Positions 3,279 to 53,349 of a stretch of 64,000 nt of DNA are shown one piece after another; position 1 is the first letter of the stretch, and each line of letters begins with the position of its first letter. Under the pieces are notes generated by a model. It had not been told where the DNA came from. It did not search any database and saw nothing but the letters and a program-made list of their open reading frames with translations. Position numbers and translations under genes: made by a program. The DNA is from Hormiphora californensis (lineage: Eukaryota > Animalia > Ctenophora): the NCBI GenBank assembly GCA_020137815.1, contig CM035353.1, positions 620,001 to 684,000 of the forward strand, given 5' to 3'.

Positions 3279-4999
<1,721 letters not shown>

Positions 5000-6134: not shown

Positions 6135-12794
<6,660 letters not shown>

Positions 12795-13058
12795 GACAAG
12801 GTGGAATCTACATCATATCTACATCCTATATGATGGGAATTTAGGTTAGCCGTGAAATGAGGGTCCTCATTGGGGTGCTGGAAAGGTCTTTATAGCACAA
12901 CCGGGGAGAAGTCTTTATTTCAATAGGATGTATCTCAAAAATACAATCCGTAAAATCAAAAAGGAAGGGGACATGGACAGTTGGCACAGTACAGGGTGGG
13001 CTATGGTATGTCTCTCGGCCTGATTACAGGTACACACTGCACGCTATCAAAAAGAGTA

Positions 13059-13267
13059 GGGTAGCGACTGGTTATTTGAAATGGCGGCTAATTTGAAACA
13101 CCCCTCTACAGGCTAGCAGGTGCACCAGATTTTGATTTTTAATCAATGGGCTAATCAGAACTCATGTCAAGCCCACTGATGTCTAAAAATCCAAATCTGG
13201 TGCACCTGCTGGCCTGTAGAGGGGGTGTTTCAAATTAGCGGCCATTTCGAAAAGCCAGTCGCTACCC
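13059..13267. mobile_element. TA-flanked palindromic MITE (second copy at ~17344-17553)
   Basis: TA|GGGTAGCGACTGG...CCAGTCGCTACCC|TA with ~85-bp arms. Confidence 0.88.
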
Positions 13268-13765
13268 TACTAGGAGACTTCTTCAAATTGGCTAAAGCTA
13301 TGCAACTATACCGCCAATCAATAGCACTAATAATAACTCGAAACTTCATAGCCAGATCGCAAAAATCGATAAAGTCCATTTTTTTTCAACTGTTCACCCA
13401 AAAGCTGAAATTTAATAAAAATTAGAATTTGGGTGGCGCGCGCTACACGTTAACATGTGATAAACGCGCAAAACAATTCCGTGCACGACTTTGGGGGGTG
13501 AACAGTTGAAAAAAATGGAGTATACTGCTAACACTTCATCGATTTTGGGCACACCCCTACCAGTCAACCTGAAACGCAGCAACTCTGCCTCTAATGGAAG
13601 TGTAGTTGATGAGGGGAATCTTGATTGTGAGAAGGATGTAGAACAGAACGGAGAGACAGGTATAACTAAGGGGAATTATAGAGGCTGATACAGTGGTTGA
13701 GAAGAGTTGTTGGGTACACAATAAGTGCTAAGGCTGCCAGCTAGGATTTTATTGGGGATATCAGT

Positions 13766-16407
13766 TAAATCAAATCAAATCAAATCAAATCAAATTAAAT
13801 TTACACTCTAAACGCGTGCGGATTTCCAGCGAGTGGGTCCTCCTTGTCAAGTCTAACTCAAAATATTAAAATCGAATCGCCCCGTCATGTGGTCAGTCAT
13901 CAGCAAAATCACACACAGCAAAATCACACACAGCAAATCACACACAGCTAAGATTTCGCCGCCTGACTGAAGTCATTCGGGACCGTGGGGTACCCTCTCA
14001 CTGGAGGCCTGTCCTTGTACTCCTTCATGAAAGAACCCAGGCTAGCCTTAAACCCTGCCAATGTTTCCACAAGGGTCACCTCTCGGGGCAGTTTTATTCC
14101 ACAACTGAGGAGCCCTGTAACTGAACGAGTTTGAACAGCTGGGTAGCTCGCCTCCTATCAGCCCAATAAGGATACTTCTGCGTTTGACCTGTATCCCCAG
14201 CGGCCTGTCTGGAATTCCATTCCTACACAGTTAGGTACTAGTCCATGATAGATTTTCCAGACATGTATAAGCTCGTACCTCTGGCGTCGCCTCTGAAGGG
14301 ACATGATTTTCAGAGTCTCCAACCGCTCCCAGTAAGTCAGCTCATTCATCCCATAGATCTTTCTTAAGAAAGCTCGCTGACGTTCTCCAGGCGCCTGGAT
14401 GTCAGCTACCTTGGACGGTGACCAAACCAAGCAGCAGTACTCTAGAATGGGACGAACCAAGGCCTTGTATAGAGTCAGTAATACCTGTAGATCTACATCT
14501 GAACACGCTCAGAATCCATCCCGCAATCCGGTTGGCCCTCCTAACGATGTCATATGTGTAAGTCCATGTACCATCCGCCGACAACCATACACCGAGGTCC
14601 TTTACGTGCTGTTCAGGTCCACAGTCGTACCTGCTTCCGTAACATAGCTCAGGGTTTCAGACGTGAAAGGTAGCTCCCTAGCAACTGGGACTTGCCTAGG
14701 GGGTATATCATTAGCTGAAACTTCTTCTCGTGAAGCCTCATGTTGTTTTTGGACGACCACTGACTAACATTTTTGATGTCCTCTTGAAGTTCCACTTGGT
14801 CAAGAAGGGTCTGGATAGCCTGGATCAGCTTAGTGTCTCGGCAAAAGACATCGAGTCTGCACTTGGAGCATTCTTTCAGGTCGAGTACATAAAATATGAA
14901 AAAGGACTGGCCCCAGTACCTGCCCTGGATTACACTACTGACCACGAGTTCCCAAAATGATTGCCCCCGTCCACAAGTACCGTCTGCTTCCGGTTGGTGA
15001 GGAACTCTTTATCCAAGCCAACAGTTTGCCGCGGAACACCATAACGATGAAGCTTTTTGAGTAAGACACGTGTATCAACTCTATCAAATGCTTTTTGAAA
15101 GTCCAGATACAACACGTCCCCTTCATTCCCTTCAGTGAGATGTTTTAATACTCTATCTATATGGCGAGGAGATGAGTCATCGTACTTCGCCCCTTTCGAA
15201 AGCCGTGCTGCCTATCGCAATGAAGCTCTGCTCTCTCCAAGAAGTTCGTCAGTGGTCTCGCAGCACCTCTCAAATGTTTTGGAGATATGTGACGTGATAG
15301 CCACCGGTCGGTAATTCTCAGGCAGCGAGCGATCCCCTTTCTTAAAGATTGGACAGATAAACTGTTCTTTCATTGCTGCTGGTATGGTACTTGTATTGAA
15401 AGACTCCTTCCAGAGAACCAAATCGGGTACGCTAATCTCCTGCAACAGCTTTTTAGAATGACAGCTGGAATTCTCCGGTGGGGCTGCTGAGTTGGGTTTA
15501 AGCTCCTTTAATGCTTTCAATATCCTCCTGGAAACTCTATATCCAGATTTCCACATTGTTCTCAGGGATGTTTCTCGATTGCCTTCTCTGGATCCACATC
15601 CGCTGGGTTACTGAAGACTTCACGTATTGCCGCTGCAGCAGGTCTGCCTTTTCCCTAGAATCTGTTGTAAGAGAACCATCTTCCCTCGCGAGTGGAGAGA
15701 CCGAGGACTTCACCTTGGAGAAGGATTTGGCGTGGGTGAAGAAGTACTTAGGGTTCAACTTAACCGCCGCTGCAACTTTTTCTTCTCTAGCTTGCTGTTG
15801 ATCTTCACGTGGTCTTTAATGTCCATCGTTATTCTGTCCACCTTTTCCTCCAGCCGCTGTTTCAGCTTACCAGATGCCCTGACCATCCGCCGGTTGAGTT
15901 TCCTCCGCCGGCTCCGCAGGTGTCTCAACTTCTTATCTCTCCACTTCTTGCCAACCCGTTTAGGTGGGGCACACATAGTGGATTATCTGTAGAACTGTAA
16001 GCCCTATCAGTTCCAAAAAATCACTGCAACCTTCAGAACAGAGGAGGTGCAGGAGGTCCCAGTCCACCTCCTCAAACAACGCGTTTTGCTTCAAATCCAT
16101 GTCCAATAAGCTGAGCCTGCAAACCTGTTTTTCTCCGTAGGTCTCTCTCCACCTTTCCGTACAGTTGAATGCCAGAGTGCATGTCACCATGGAATGGTCG
16201 ATATTCCGAGGTCGTCCAGTTCACCGCCAGGACATAATCTGGCCTGTTGGTGAACACTAGATCAAGAACATTATCTCCCCTGGTTGGTGATGATACCAAC
16301 TGCGTTAGAAGGTTGGTGTCCATGAAATCCCGGAGTGTGTTGTATAGAGGCTGGTCAACAAATTCCGGAACACCGCCTTCCCATTTCAAGAGGGGAAGGT
16401 TGAAGTT
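13766..16407 (-). mobile_element. 5'-truncated CR1-clade LINE (endonuclease end plus RT), frameshifted
   Basis: LYLDFQKAFDRVD, PIFKKGDRSLPENYRPVAITS, LDLVFTN and LVRPILEYCCLVWSP, with an (ATTTG)n 3' tail at 13766-13800. Confidence 0.93.
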
Positions 16408-16815
16408 GCTGTAATCTTCCAGATGCCGTTTAGTTTACCCTAGTTGGCCAGCGACCCCTGACCTGAACGCTGAACGTGGGTGGTCCGTGGTCTTTTGAAA
16501 ATTCGACTTTTAAAAAAACCTGAAAGGGAAATCTGAGCTGAGCTGAATTTTGAATTGATAGAAAAAATATCGCGCGCACGAACAATTATGCGTCGCGATT
16601 ATTGTAACGCGCGAACTTTGTCTGAACACGTTGCCGCGCGCTGAAATCTTGACACGCGATCCGATAAATTTTTTTCGGAATCGCCCAATTTTTTTTTCTC
16701 AAAATTCTCGCTTTTTTAATTATTTTTCAAAATTCTCGCTTTTCACTCGACAGTCGCGTAAGCAATCTTTGATGTTGAGTCCTAACTCCTGAAAGTTCTC
16801 AGCAACAAAAATTCC

Positions 16816-17260
16816 ATGGCACCTATGGTTGAGCCTGATAATGTGCCAGCGTCTTGTCCCGGTCCGGCGTCGGAGGAAGCGGGAAAAATGGACGGTTGTG
16901 CCGGATGTCCCAACAAACAAGCATGCTCCACCGGCCAATTCAAAACAGACACCTCACCATCAGATGTAGCGGCTGCGCTGAGCAAAGTTAAACATAAAAT
17001 CCTTGTCTTATCGGGAAAGGGAGGCGTTGGTAAGAGCACAGTTACGGCCCAAATTGCTCGAAATCTTGCAGCTCGTGATTACTCAGTTGGCGTGGTAGAT
17101 GTGGACGTGTGTGGTCCATCTCTCGCTCGGATATTAGGTGTCAACGGTCAGAGTGTCCACAAGAGCTCAAATGGTTGGAGTCCAGTGTACACATTAGACG
17201 ACATTGCCGTCATGTCCATTGATTTTCTTGCTCGGTCTCAGAGAGATGCTGTGATCTGGC
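16816..17260 (+). pseudogene. NUBP1: 5' half of NUBP1, truncated at the duplication junction (probably artefactual)
   Basis: CPG...[11 protein letters not shown] Fe-S motif and [10 protein letters not shown]-loop. The match ends at DAVIW. Confidence 0.8.
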
Positions 17261-18045
17261 CGGTTGGCAAGTACAGTGTGGGCTATGGTCTTGTCTATCG
17301 GCATGATACAGGTACCACACGCCACCGCTATCCAAAAGAAGTAGGGTAGGCGACTGGTTATTTGAAAGGCGGCTAATTTGAAACACCCCTAGCAGGCTAG
17401 CAGGTGCCACAGATTTTGTTTTTAATAAATGGAGATAATCTAGAAACTCATGTCAAGACCACTGAGTCTAAAAATCCAAATTTGGTGCACCTGCTGGCCT
17501 GTAGAGGGGGTGTTTCAAATTAGCGGCCATTTCGAAAAGCCAGTCGCTACCCTACTAGGAGACTTCTTCAAATTGGCTAAAGCTATGCAACTATACCGCC
17601 AATCAATAGCACTAATAATAACTCGAAACTTCATAGCCAGATCGCAAAAATCGATAAAGTCCATTTTTTTTCAACTGTTCACCCAAAAGCTGAAATTTAA
17701 TAAAAATTAGAATTTGGGTGGCGCGCGCTACACGTTTAACATGTGATAACGCGCAAAACAATTCCGTGCACGACTTTGGGGGGTGAACAGTTGAAAAAAA
17801 TGGGTATACTGCTAACACTCACGATTTTGGGCACACCCCTACCAGTCAACTGAAACGCAGCAACTCTGCCTCTAATGGAAGTGTAGTTGAGTGGGGAATC
17901 TTGATTGTGAGAAGGATGTAGAACAGAACGGAGAGACAGGATAAACTAAGGGGAATTATAGAGGCTGATACAGTGGTTGAGAAGAGTTGTTGGGTACACA
18001 ATAAGTGCTAAGGCTGCCAGCTAGGATTTTATTGGGGATATCAGT

Positions 18046-20682
18046 TAAATCAAATCAAATCAAATCAAATCAAATTAAATTTACACAATCTAAACGCGTG
18101 CGGATTTCCCAGCGAGTGGGTCCTCCTTGTCAAGTCTTAACTCAAAATATTAAAATCGAATCGCCCCGTCATGTGGTCAGTCATCAGCAAAATCACACAC
18201 AGCAAAATCACACCACAGCAAAATCACACACAGTAAGATTTCGCCGCCTGACTGAAGTCATTCGGGACCGTGGGGTACCCTCTCACTGGAGGCCTGTCCT
18301 TGTACCCTTCATGAAAGAACCCAGGCTAGCCTTAAACCCTGCCAAGTTTCACAAAGGGTCACTCTCGGGGCAGTTTATTCCACAACTGAGGAGCCCTGTA
18401 ACTGAACGAGTTTGAACAGCTGGGTAGCTCGCCTCCTATCAGCCCAATAAGGATACTTCTGCGTTTGACCTGTATCCCCAAGCGGCCTGTCTGAATTCCA
18501 TTCCTACACAGTTAGGTACTAGTCCATGATAGATTTTCCAGACATGTATAAGCTCGTACCTCTGGCGTCGCCTTGAAGGGACATGATTTTCAGAGTCTCC
18601 AACCGCTCCCAGTAAGTCAGCTCATATTCCCATAGATCTTTCTTAAGAAAGCTCGCTGAACGTTCTCCAGCGCCTGGATGTCAGCTACCTTGGACGGTGA
18701 CCAAACCAAGCAGCAGTACTCTAGAATGGGACGAACCAAGGCCTTGTATAGAGTCAGTAATACCTCCTGAGATCTACATCTGAACACGCTCAGAATCCAT
18801 CCCGCAATCCGGTTGGCCCTCCTAACGATGTCATTGATGTGATAAGTCCATGTACATCCGCCGACAACCATACACCGAGGTCCTTTACGTGCTGTTCAGG
18901 TTCCACAGTCGTACCTGCTTCCGTAACATAGCTCAGGGTTTCAGACGTGAAAGGTAGCTCCCTAAGCAACTGGGACTTGCCTAGGGGGTATATCATTAGC
19001 TGAAACTTCTCTGTGAAGCCTCATGTTGTTATTGGACGACCACTGACTAACATTTTTGATGTCCTCTGAAGTTCCACTTGGTCAAGAAGGGTCTGGATAG
19101 CCTGGATCAGTTAGTGTCATCGGCAAAAGACATCGGTCTGCACTTGAGAGGCATTCTTTCAGGTCGAGTACTAAAATATGAAAAGGACTGGCCCAGTACG
19201 CTGCCCTGGATTACACTACTGACCCACGAGTCCCAAAATGATTGCTCCCCGTCCACAAGTACCGTCTGCTCGGTTGGTGAGGAACTCCTTATCCAAGCCA
19301 ACAGTTTGCCGCGGACACCAAACGATGAAGCTTTTTGAGTAAGACACGTGTATCAACTCTTCAAATGCTTTTTGAAAGTCAGATACAACACGTCCACTTA
19401 TCCTTCAGTGGATGTTTTAATACTCTATCTATATGGCGAGGAGATGAGTCATCGTACTTCGCCCCTTTCGAAAGCCGTGCTGCCTATCGCAATGAAGCTC
19501 TGCTCTCTCCAAGAAGTTCGTCAGGTGGTTCGCAGCACCCTCTCAAATGTTTTGGAGATATTGGACGTGATAGCCACGGTCGGTAATTTCCAGGCAGCGA
19601 GCGATCCTTTCTTAAAGATTGGACAGATAAACTGTTCTTCATTGCTGCTGGTATGGTACTTGTATTGAAAGACTCCTTCCAGAGAAGCCAAATCGGGTAC
19701 GCTAATCTGCTGCAACAGCTTTTTAGAATGACAGCTGGAATATCTCCGGTGGGGCTGCTGAGTTGGGTTTAAGCTCCTTTAATGCCTTTTCAATATCCTC
19801 CTGGAAAAACTCTAATCCAAGATTTCACCATTGTTTCTAGGGATGTTCTCGATTGCCTTCTCTGGATCCAACATCCGCTGGGTTATGAAGACTTCACGTA
19901 TTGCCGCTGCAGCAGGTCTGCCTTTCCCTAGAATCTGTTGTAAGAGAACCATCTTCCCGCCGGAGTGGAGAGACCGAGGACTCACCTTGGAGAAGGATTT
20001 GGCGTGGGTGAAGAAGTACTTAGGTTCAAACTTAACCGCCGCTGCAACTTTTTCTTCTCTAGCTTGCTGTTGATCTTTCACGTGGTCTTTAATGTCCATC
20101 GTTATTCTGTCCACCTTTTCCTCCAGCCGCTGTTTCAGCTTACCAGATGCCCTGACCATCCGCGTTGAGTTTCCTCCGCCGGCTCCGCAGGTGTCTCAAC
20201 TTCTTATCTCTCCACTTCTTGCCAACCCGTTTAGGTGGGGCACACATAGTGGATATCTGTAGAACTGTACCTCATCAGTTCCAAAAAATCACATGCAACC
20301 TTCAGAACAGAGGAGGTGCAGGAGGTCCCAGTCCACCTCCTCAAACAACGCGTTTGCCCTCTCAAAATCCATGTCCAATAAGCTGAGCGCTGCAAACCCT
20401 GTTTTCTCCCGTAGGTTCTCTCCACCCTTTCCGTACAGTTGAATGCCAGAGGCATGTCACCATGGAATGGTCGGATATTCCGAGGTCGTCGCAGTTCACC
20501 GCCAGGACATAATCTGGCCTGTTGGTGAACACTAGATCAAGAACATTATTTCTCCTGGTTGGTGATGATACCAACTGCGTTAGAAGGTTGGTGTCCATGA
20601 AATCCCGGAGTGTGTTGTATAGAGGCTGGTCAACAATTCCGGAACACCGCCTTCCCATTTCAAGAGGGGAAGGTTGAAGTTG
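18046..20682 (-). mobile_element. Second copy of the CR1-clade LINE within the duplication
   Basis: Colinear with 13766-16407; contains SFADDT. Confidence 0.92.
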
Positions 20683-21082
20683 TGTAATCTTCCAGATGCC
20701 GTTAGTTTACCCTAGTTGGCCAGCGACCCCTGACCTGAACGCTGAACGTGGGTGGTCCGTGGTCTTTTGAAAATTGACTTTTAAAAAACCTGAAAGGGAA
20801 ATCTGAGCTGAGCTGAATTTTGAATTGATAGAAAAAATATCGCGCGCACGAACAATTATGCGTCGCGATTATTGTAACGCGGAACTTTGTCTGAACACGT
20901 TTGCCGGCGCTGAAATCTTGACACGGATCCGATATAAATTTTTTCGGAATCGCCCAATTTTTTTTTCTCAAAATCTCGCTTTTTTAATATTTTTCAAAAT
21001 TCTCGCTTTTCACTCGACAGTCGCGTAAGCAATCTTTGATGTGAGTCCTAACTCCTGAAAGTTCTCAGCAACAAAAAATTCC

Positions 21083-22001
21083 ATGGCAACTAGGTTGAGC
21101 CTGATAATGTGCCAGCGTCTTGTCCCGGTCCGGGTCGGAGGAAGGGGAAAAATGGACGGTTGTGCCGGATGTCCCAACAAACAAGCATGCTCCACCGGCC
21201 AATTCAAAACAGACACCTCACCATCAGATGTAGCGGCTGCGCTGAGCAAAGTTAAACATAAAATCTTGTTTATCGGGAAAGGGAGGCGTTGGTAAGAGCA
21301 CAGTTACGGCCCAAATTGCTCGAAATCTTGCAGCTCGTGATTACTCAGTTGGCGTGGTAGATGTGGACGTGTGTGGTCCATCTCTCGCTCGGATATTAGG
21401 TGTCAACGGTCAGAGTGTCCACAAGAGCTCAAATGGTTGGAGTCCAGTGTACACATTAGACGACATTGCCGTCATGTCCATTGATTTCTTGCTCGGTTCA
21501 GAGGAGGATGCTGTGATCTGGCGGGGTGCCAAGAAAAATGGCATGATCAAGGAATTCCTGACATCTGTGGATTGGGGTGAGTTGGATTACCTCTTGATGG
21601 ACACACCCCCGGGCACCAGCGACGAGCACCTCGCAATTGTGTCCCTTCTCAAACAGAGCAAGGTATCTGGTTGTGTGCTGGTGACAACACCACAGGAGGT
21701 TTCCCTCGGTGATGTCCGGAAAGAGGTGAACTTCTGCCGGAAACTGAAACTCCCAATTGTTGGAGTGGTTGAGAATATGGCGTGGTATGATTGTCCAAAG
21801 TGTCAGACTAAATCAGAGATTTTCCCGGCTACCACGGGCGGGGCTGCAGCCATGTGTCATCGGGAGGGGCTTGATTTGTTGTGCTCTGTCCCACTGAGTC
21901 CAAAAGTTGGTCAGAGTTGTGACTCGGGCATAGAGGGAGATGGTCTGCCACTCGAGTATGGGGTTTTAGTTGATAAAATTACACGCTATTGTGAGGGTTG
22001 A
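21083..22001 (+). CDS. NUBP1: Cytosolic Fe-S cluster assembly factor NUBP1/Nbp35, intronless; 5' part carries indels
   Basis: [47 protein letters not shown] and VVENM...CPKC. The N-terminal four-Cys motif distinguishes it from NUBP2. Confidence 0.92.
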
Positions 22002-42690: not shown

Positions 42691-42965
42691 TGTTTGCAGT
42701 GATTTGCGAAAATTTGTGAATGTGTGCGATAGATTTCGATAACTACTTGCGCGGCGCAATAATAGCGCGTGACAGTTGCGCGCACGAAAAACAGGTATAT
42801 TCGATTAATAAAAATACGATGCGCACACGATTTCCAAAGTTTTCAAGCGTGTTTTTTCAAGCGTGTTTTTTATCGATCAAAGTTTTGGAATGCGCTGCAG
42901 CCCCCTCATGCGCGCACCCCCGCAATATTATATTATAAGGGGCCTGCAACGTATGCCAAATCAAA

Positions 42966-43560
42966 GTTAAAATCTGGGTGCCTTCCATTGCTAACAATAG
43001 GGATCCCTAATAAAGTTGTGACTTGTCACTGTAGTCTTGCGGAGGCGCAGTTGTGACTTGTCACCGCGTGTGCGCGTACCAAAACGCACGTGGTTCCCAC
43101 TGCGCGTAGCTGCGGCGCGGCGTAAACCATGCGGTGACAAGTTACAATCGCGCATTTTGAAGCCGCGCCGCCACGGGAACCACATGTTTGGTGACAAGTC
43201 ACAACTTTATTAGGGATCCCTATGAGGAAGCTCGGAAATGTTCATGTCATGCACATTCAAGTCACGCCCTCCAATCACTGCTCAGAACGCGCGGATCGCA
43301 AGAGCCGTTCTGAGCTGTGATTGGTGGGCGTGACTTGAATGTGCATGACATGAACATTTCCGGGCCTCCTCATTCATCGATTTTGGCGCTCGAAACGGGT
43401 TAGGGCTGTTGTTAGGGTCGGGTTAGGGTTTTGTTGGAAAACGTTAAAATCTGGGTGCCTTTCATTGCTAACAATGCGTAGTTTTGGCGTGCGCAACGGG
43501 TTAGGGCTATCCGTTAGGGTCTGGTTAGGGTTTGGTTTGGGGTTATCGGTTAGGGCTATC
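42966..43560. mobile_element. Nested repeat cluster: two abutting palindromic MITEs (~42998-43222 and ~43222-43374) inside an element with 33-bp direct repeats and GGGTTAGGG-like motifs
   Basis: TAGGGATCCCTAATAAAGTTGTGACTTGTCAC TIRs, ATGAGG..CGGAAATGTTCATGTCATGC arms, and GTTAAAATCTGGGTGCCTT at 42966 and 43444. Confidence 0.8.
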
Positions 43561-43646
43561 GATTCTCTATCAGTTACCGTTTAGTTTACTCAAATTGGCG
43601 ATGTGGTTGCGTGGCTATAGCCGTTTGGAAAAAGTCTGTCTAAGTG

Positions 43647-43682
43647 AACTTTTCAACACTATTTTAAAAAAATTAATTTGAG
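43647..43682 (+). other. Relict (retroposed) spliced-leader sequence, copy 2
   Basis: AACTTTTCAACACTATTTTAAAAAAATTAATTTGAG is followed by CGATG, with no GT donor. Confidence 0.8.
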
Positions 43683-43799
43683 CGATGTCGCAAAAGAAGA
43701 CGGTGAACTGCTTATTATGGAAGACAGCGAAAAGAGAATTTCCTGCGAACGTGGATATCGCCCGGGGATATCGCCCGTGGATTGACATGGTTGTGTAGC

Positions 43800-44146
43800 A
43801 TAAACAGTTTAATACACAGCAGACTGGACTACTGTAACAGCCTCCTTGCTGGTTCTTCTGCCAAAGACATAGGTCGTTTACAGAAGATTCAAAACTCTGC
43901 GGCCCGTTTCGTCTTTGGACAACGCCTCTACCAAGGCACCACAAACCTTCGCAAACAGCTTCATTTCCTACCCGTTCGAGAAAGAGTGCAGTACAAGTTG
44001 TGTCTACTGACATACAAAACACTGATTAGTATAGCCCCACCTTACCTCTCGAAGATGATATCACTCCGTCAACCGAAGTTAAAAAGTCTACGAAGGGATG
44101 CTGACAAAACCTTACTTGACAAGAACTATGCCAGATATTGTTCGAG
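43800..44146 (+). mobile_element. L2/Crack-type LINE ORF2 post-RT fragment
   Basis: SLIHSRLDYCNSLLAG...RLQKIQNSAARFVFG...LHFLPVRERVQYKLCLLTYK...APPYL. Confidence 0.88.
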
Positions 44147-44842
44147 TTTAGTGTCGCTGCTCCGGTAACTGGGTAATATGAAATAGCCAAGCGGCGTGCA
44201 CGATATTACAGTTAGTGGCTGACAATCGGGTTAAAAAAGAGATGCTGTAAAGTACAAACCCCCTTTTAACAGCACCAGACGATGGATGTGTACACACTCT
44301 TACACTCTTACACACAACAATCATAACCAGTAAACGACCGGACAGGCATTCACCCGGATGCCTTTTTACTTTGTAAAAAGGCATAGCAGGGTTAGAATTC
44401 GAAAACGACATTTTGGTATACTAACTAATCGGTAGAGGGACCTTTTTGGTCACACTTTCGTTGCGAGGGGCAACCTCGCGGCGCGCGATCTGAGTAAAAT
44501 GTGCGCACACAAACAATTGAAATTTTATGAGGGGCGCGCAGCTATAAACTGTAACATGCGGCAAAATTTGTTTTATATCGGCCGCACGTTTTGATTGGGG
44601 AAAATGGAGAAATTGAAAAATCTGTTCTGCGTTTTGTTCAAAAATTCGAAAAACACAAATCCCCATTTTGCGGACAGCTTACTCGTTGGGCGAGTTGAAT
44701 GGCAAATCGAAGAGGGCAGGGAAACGTAGCATTATGGATACATAATGCAAATAATTATTTTCCGGTGCCGTCGACGCCGGCCCGGCGTTGAAAGCAAATC
44801 AATTCAAATGGCATGTATTGGGTTGTATTGTAAACCCTTTAA

Positions 44843-53349
<8,507 letters not shown>

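Follow-up and report, generated by a model that had tools for sequence, protein, structure and literature searches.

A spliced leader at the head of a dead LINE relic in the ctenophore genome of Hormiphora californensis

Introduction

How does the DNA copy of a spliced leader (SL) come to stand directly in front of a start codon and, a short distance further, of the remains of a LINE in the same orientation? This question is raised by a locus in the window, which is the whole stretch of 64,000 nucleotides that was analysed here. Known joints of this kind fall into different classes. The U6-L1 chimeras join the intact 5' end of one RNA to the 3' part of a LINE in one orientation. The NeSL and SLACS/CRE elements, in contrast, target SL genes and possess a restriction-like endonuclease.

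In the published genome of Hormiphora, 718 copies of the leader have been reported and were treated as leader loci, the leader exons being 35-48 nt long (PMC8527503). The locus described here suggests that such copies may have more than one origin.

Architecture of the relic

The relic is dead and single-copy. It consists of an SL, a multi-copy piece (the 5' piece) and post-RT sequence of a LINE ORF2, which follow each other in one orientation (Table 1). This dead LINE fragment comprises ~540 bases, and its 5' end is a DNA copy of the spliced leader. An earlier, sequence-only reading had named an SL-like 36-mer followed by CGATG, which is indeed present at 43647-43682 and 43683 and opens a frame of 37 codons (MSQKKTVNCLLWKTAKREF...). 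It had also placed a post-RT LINE region within ~120 nt on the same strand, and the homology begins at 43803, exactly 120 nt past the SL. The end that it gave, 44146, falls short, as the LINE homology passes a 10-nt gap at 44145 and reaches ~44187. The loss of the LINE 3' end was overlooked in that reading. By contig depth, the next high-copy repeat begins at 44344.

Table 1. Features of the relic, its flanks and the second SL copy in the window
Feature	Position	Strand	Basis
High-copy host repeat, GGGTTA-like units	43381..43646	+	contig depth; start from repeats D4/D1
SL relic, last 36/44 letters, 2 substitutions, without GT donor	43647..43682	+	
Multi-copy 5' piece: CG, ATG at 43685; 13-nt tandem duplication 43750-43775	43683..43796	+	
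Six letters in neither part; internal join	43797..43802	+	contig alignment ends
Post-RT part of LINE ORF2, ~residues 795-925 of ~950; 3' end and tail missing	43803..44187	+	
Near single-copy flank without LINE homology	44188..44343		contig depth, records 8, 24
Second SL relic, 43/44 letters, without GT donor, then AAAGCC ATG	10180..10223	+	
Open frame behind the second SL, with AlkB-type 2OG-Fe(II) oxygenase domain	10259..11383	+	

The join in raw sequencing data

Contigs of four public runs (of 22 listed, X8, X9 and X11-X20 having small shares) were aligned on 43500-44400, namely X1, X5 and X10 (DNA) and X7 (RNA). X1 and X5 represent organism A and stem from different samples and studies, one of the two runs being possibly related to the source of the assembly, and X10 represents organism B, which carries a second species label. 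In X1, record 5 covers 43592-43832 with 0 differences at a depth of 25. Record 20 of X5, at a depth of 253, extends over 43618-43831 and shows 2 differences plus 9 gap letters. The single-copy flanking contigs have depths of 24 (X1) and 334 (X5), contig depth being a rough measure of copy number only. Since the join of SL, 5' piece and LINE lies inside single contigs of two DNA runs, it is genomic, single-copy in organism A and no artefact of the assembly. It was absent from the contigs of X10 (organism B) and X7 (RNA).

Relative to the X1 allele of the locus, the window has a 10-nt gap at 44145 and 8-nt extras at 44164 and 44294, which represent either haplotype differences or assembly errors. 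Due to these small indels near 44145-44300, X1 is probably another haplotype.

The two spliced leader copies

The 36-mers at 43647-43682 and 10188-10223 are identical at 34/36 positions and differ at 43662 and 43669, where ~8e-13 chance matches of such a pair are expected in 2 x 64 kb. Compared by eye, 10180-10223 agrees in 43/44 letters with the 44-letter leader consensus of Hormiphora californensis as printed in PMC8527503, which shows that the copy at 43647 lacks the first 8 letters. The latter lies above 90% identity (34/36, 94%) to the 35-48 nt ctenophore leader ending in AATTTGAG.

A GT donor follows neither copy, the letters directly 3' of the SL being CG at 43683 and AA at 10224. In the relic, an mRNA-like 5' end follows the SL immediately, its ATG lying 2 nt behind the SL, as seen in contigs of X1 and X5. 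In the 120 nt behind this SL, no Sm-like motif was detected with a Hydra/SLIDR-type pattern, which may not be the motif used by ctenophores. An Rfam search gave 0 matches, as did the search for the SL motif in viral contigs, and the flanks of the copies at 43647 and 10180 share nothing beyond an 11-letter inverted chance match. Both SL copies in the 64 kb (2/2) look like the heads of retrocopies, that is, they lack the GT and lie just before an ATG.

Behind the second SL, the ATG of AAAGCC ATG is separated by a break from the AlkB frame, which has 375 codons (PF13532, E 4.9e-18; Atlas 0.96). Together they may be a host mRNA that was retro-copied or else another element's ORF1. With respect to a LINE ORF1, neither a homologue nor a downstream ORF2 remnant was found: the frame gave no homologues of near or longer lengths, and the plus strand behind it contains no match to an ORF2 profile. 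An open stretch that looks coding (9742-10179) directly precedes this SL at 10180.

The LINE part and its family

The LINE part is 84% identical to P0001 over 114 aa and 58-65% identical to P0002, P0005 and P0012, which are ORF2s with an APE endonuclease and an RT (PF03372, PF14529, PF00078). It begins at ~residue 795 of 950, which is ~125 residues past the YADD motif. Judged by these homologies, it is the post-RT part of the ORF2 of an APE-type LINE, and the relic itself holds this post-RT part alone. P0002 (64% to the LINE part) clusters with a protein of Pleurobrachia bachei, which, taken with the match to the Hormiphora leader, makes a pleurobrachiid ctenophore very likely as origin of the window. 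A motif makes the L2/Crack clade, named in the sequence-only reading, a candidate placement of the LINE.

Contigs of the family reach depths of 437 (X1), 3581-4623 (X5), 429 (X10) and 27 (X7, RNA) and carry 10 extra letters at 44145 relative to the window. Record 30 of X7 extends 317 letters past 44165, and the likeness of the window to the family stops near 44187. The relic has lost ~30 codons on its 3' side, together with the 3' UTR and the tail. At the internal join, the alignment of record 6 of X1 ends at 43796, and the family ORF2 contigs diverge before 43803 (X1, X7) or 43801 (X10). Cis-splicing was considered as cause of the internal deletion and rejected, since TT and not AG precedes 43803 in the family.

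In the oligo-dT metatranscriptome X7, a 786-nt contig of the majority form of the LINE spans 43803-44165 at a depth of 27. This contig may represent RNA of active copies or DNA.

The 5' piece as a probable start of ORF1

Record 6 of X1, a contig of 231 nt with a depth of 171 versus 24-25 for single-copy contigs, can be aligned on 43677-43796. It lacks the 13-nt tandem duplication at 43750-43775, which is private to the window copy, and differs from the window in 7 other letters. In X5, the 5' piece reaches a depth of 2095 in 3 contigs versus 253-334 for single-copy sequence, and in X10 it is partly covered (depth 48-118), so that the 5' piece and the LINE part are both covered in organism B. 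Relative to the single-copy depth of X1 and X5, the 5' piece is present at 6.3-8.3x and the LINE part at 10.7-18.4x. By this measure, both samples of organism A agree that the 5' piece is a small repeat family, less frequent than the 3' part of the LINE. As a rule, 5' truncation of LINEs makes their 5' ends rarer than their 3' parts.

The family contigs of X1, X5 and X10 read C at 43720, which gives a Cys codon and thereby a C-x-x-C near the start of the 5' piece, with a W-x-C at its end; this is no more than half a PHD pattern. N-terminal Cys domains of the PHD type are described as common in the ORF1 of L2/CR1 elements (PMC4120745). If the private 13-nt duplication is set aside, the ATG frame of the 5' piece is in register with the ORF2 frame, for which the chance is 1 in 3. 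The 5' piece is likely the start of the LINE ORF1.

Homology searches gave no support to this assignment. Pfam gave 0 matches on the 5' piece, an Atlas search no usable match, and a search of metagenome contigs with its pattern 0 matches. Among 80 of 509 related loci (all 31-50% to P0002), neither the 5' piece nor the SL was found, the best local matches to the SL being 18-33 nt long with E 0.02 or worse. The 37-aa frame had only two matches among 1.84 billion entries, P0121 (FG-GAP repeats) and P0122 (a repeated 27-mer), which were both rejected as chance inflated by repeats. A link between the 5' piece and ORF2 in an intact element was seen in none of the contigs, metagenome contigs or related loci searched. 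In X7, the middle of the 5' piece (43717-43778) has a depth of 0, so that a trans-splice of this RNA is not seen directly in these contigs; in an oligo-dT library, this says nothing against its expression.

Upstream of the 5' piece

The alignment of record 6 starts at 43677, six letters inside the 3' end of the SL, and 50 unaligned letters precede it. Here, the alignment threshold was 80%, and the SL of the window is 94% like the consensus. Judged by its alignment limits rather than its letters, record 6 would carry, at exactly the place taken by the SL in the window, an outron with an acceptor AG at its end. Such an outron-like start would support trans-splicing of the parent RNA. The SL-headed form of the 5' piece was seen only in the window's own copy, and most copies (~7 in X1) appear to keep an upstream sequence other than the SL. 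The SL-headed copy would accordingly be a by-product and not the normal form of the family. The sequence-only reading had proposed SL-headed full-length copies that are deprived of their promoter in each cycle. The 50 letters upstream in the ~7x contig of X1, which gave no alignment with the SL, speak against this proposal.

Insertion site and ends

Upstream of the relic, the repeat reaches a summed contig depth of 5e4-1.4e6 over 43500-43654 in the three DNA runs. One contig of X7 tracks the window in 13/14 letters up to 43646 and then diverges, which indicates that the SL begins at the insertion point, without the 8 letters at its 5' end. The insertion site lies, therefore, likely directly after 43646. 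The usual continuation of the upstream repeat has 0 matches in the window at up to 3 mismatches. As a candidate for a target-site duplication, no repeat of the flank with at least 7 letters was found downstream within 3 kb, except for one inside the piece.

With the LINE 3' end gone, the target-site test for a single insertion event is lost, and with neither tail nor target duplication an insertion in a single event cannot be shown. LINE insertion starts from the 3' end. Given this, the missing tail points to a later deletion on the 3' side.

A contig of X10 runs from the high-copy repeat at 43582 through two extra letters into the SL, with 22 letters on its short side. This joint (43582/43647) is possibly an independent SL-headed insertion into the same repeat family.

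Origin of the relic

With slightly better than even confidence, we regard the relic as the cDNA of an SL-trans-spliced LINE RNA that was internally deleted and later cut at its 3' end. The family would have a splice acceptor two letters before the ATG of ORF1, behind a 5' UTR of its own, and some of its transcripts would receive the SL at this acceptor. The RT of the family would then copy the SL-capped RNA to within 8 letters of the cap and insert the copy into a high-copy repeat. Either the RT would have jumped within this one RNA or a deletion would have followed later, with the loss of ~4 kb from ORF1 codon ~33 to ORF2 residue ~795. A further, later deletion would remove the tail of the LINE together with the target duplication and what was left of the host repeat.

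The sequence-only reading had offered a deleted trans-spliced LINE and a template-switch chimera side by side. Both stay alive, and the 5' piece, which is multi-copy, rarer than the LINE part and shared with organism B, makes us lean to the former. In the chimera, which we consider unlikely although it is a serious candidate, the LINE RT would have started on its own RNA and then moved over to the 5' end of an SL-capped RNA of unrelated origin, derived from another multi-copy element, the ORF1 of another LINE family or a small host gene family. Such partners abound, as at least 56% of the Hormiphora Iso-Seq reads carry the SL according to PMC8527503. The six letters at the join that belong to neither part and the fact that no record links the 5' piece to ORF2 also fit a switch of template. 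Furthermore, the two parts diverge unequally from their family contigs, with 7/107 differences in the 5' piece versus 6/336 in the LINE part (Fisher p = 0.019). However, at 2 of the 4 differing sites listed for the 5' piece (3 further sites come without such a listing), window and organism B have the same letter, and part of the excess therefore reflects change in the main family of organism A; with 2-5 private changes in the 5' piece, p becomes 0.68-0.07. An mRNA picked at random from the host would in most cases be single-copy. The partner at this locus, in contrast, is multi-copy, at a level that in each of two samples lies just below the 3' part of the LINE, and occurs alongside the LINE part in organism B.

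Two separate events are improbable. Here, an SL-headed retrocopy would have been hit by a 5'-truncated LINE 120 nt inside and in the same orientation, followed by a deletion 3' of 44187. This deletion is required anyway, since the LINE tail and the continuation of the repeat are both missing, the shared orientation has odds of 1 in 2, and the region is crowded with repeats. Nevertheless, a second insertion into a target of 120 nt is needed, and the in-frame join as well as the matching copy gradient would have to be coincidences.

It would also be conceivable that promoter-less, SL-headed master copies are re-trans-spliced from host read-through RNA at the terminal AG of the relic. The SL does end in AG, both SL copies of the window (2/2) are GT-less heads of open reading frames, and repeated cycles are documented for dinoflagellate retrogenes (PMC5585692). 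On the other side, the ~7x contig of X1 runs unbroken through the join point with 50 non-SL letters upstream, which might at most be a very divergent leader, and the SL is seen on the window's own copy only. This makes such a cycle very improbable. An SL RNA gene, or an insertion targeted to one as in NeSL or SLACS/CRE, would place an SL exon directly upstream of element sequence as observed, but is largely refuted and extremely improbable, since GT, Sm-like motif and Rfam match are missing, the upstream sequence is a high-copy repeat whose other copies continue without SL, the two SL copies share no flank and the relatives carry an APE endonuclease.

Irrespective of whether a trans-spliced LINE, a chimera, a nested insertion or a cycle of master copies is assumed, the SL of the relic is a retro-copied one. 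A more far-reaching combination, in which the acceptor of ctenophore LINEs lies right before ORF1 and their RNAs are SL-capped, a large share of the 718 Hormiphora 'leader' copies are heads of full-length retro-insertions and some promoter-less copies stay mobile via re-trans-splicing at their own AG, seems doubtful to us as a whole.

Relation to known systems

In dinoflagellates, relict SLs tag retrogenes, as stated in PMC5585692, where Slamovits and Keeling (2008) are cited. The relic resembles these retrocopies in that a donor-less genomic SL fused to a coding 5' end marks a trans-spliced RNA that was retro-copied. Unlike them, with their host genes and tandem relics, it stems from a ctenophore, contains LINE sequence and is a single dead relic. 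Also known are six genomic SL exons of Schistosoma mansoni merged with transposons, which were read as trans-spliced and retro-transcribed elements and are given without clade in the portion of PMC5832876 concerned. For these cases, the authors mention a chimeric assembly as possible, whereas the join in the window was seen in raw-read contigs of two samples. In Hydra, ~30% of the TE Iso-Seq reads carry an SL according to PMC12220107; this concerns the RNA level, the passage describing no SL-headed insertions in the genome, in contrast to the relic described here.

Compared with the U6-L1 chimeras, the 5' partner in the window is multi-copy and maybe the LINE's own start, and the 3' tail and the target duplication are missing. 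In NeSL and SLACS/CRE an SL exon adjoins the element as well, but the LINE of the window has APE-type relatives and no SL-gene context. The contrast to these elements drawn in the sequence-only reading thus holds, as the relatives are of the APE type and the upstream flank is a high-copy repeat and not an SL gene.

For ctenophores, the literature covered yielded no description of LINEs headed by an SL or of relict SLs; Derelle 2010 (PMC2844618) and the supplements of PMC8527503, which may bear on this, lay outside its scope. The portions covered of PMC11067881, PMC7986045 and PMC9289625 contain no further SL-headed case. Apparently, an SL-headed LINE relic is new for ctenophores, while the mechanism is not new.

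Of the hundreds of leader copies reported from ctenophore genomes, many may have arisen by retro-insertion and not be leader genes. If the pattern of the window holds genome-wide, most leader copies would be tags of retro-insertions that reached the 5' end of the RNA. They would then provide a census of ctenophore retrotransposition and retrogene birth, as used in dinoflagellates, and retro-copied leaders would also lead to errors in annotation, where first exons would falsely seem to be shared. Furthermore, SL-headed and outron-headed copies of one family raise the question whether SL capping cuts LINEs off from internal promoters.

Neighbouring features

The surroundings of the relic contain further repeats. 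A 4.3-kb tandem duplication (12974-17271 / 17257-21533, 95% identical) carries in each unit decayed RT fragments of a LINE of another family on the minus strand, and no SL was found at the ends of these units. Two adjoining MITE-like elements (42997-43223 and 43222-43373) have inverted ends of 33 nt and 68 nt, and the pair is flanked by copies of a 36-nt direct repeat at 42963 and 43440.

An Arf-like small GTPase, by a motif presumably Arl1-like, has its first coding exon (44918-45026, plus strand) 730 nt downstream of the relic. Behind this exon, a membrane-protein frame of 334 aa (45365-46366) is present, perhaps nested in an intron.
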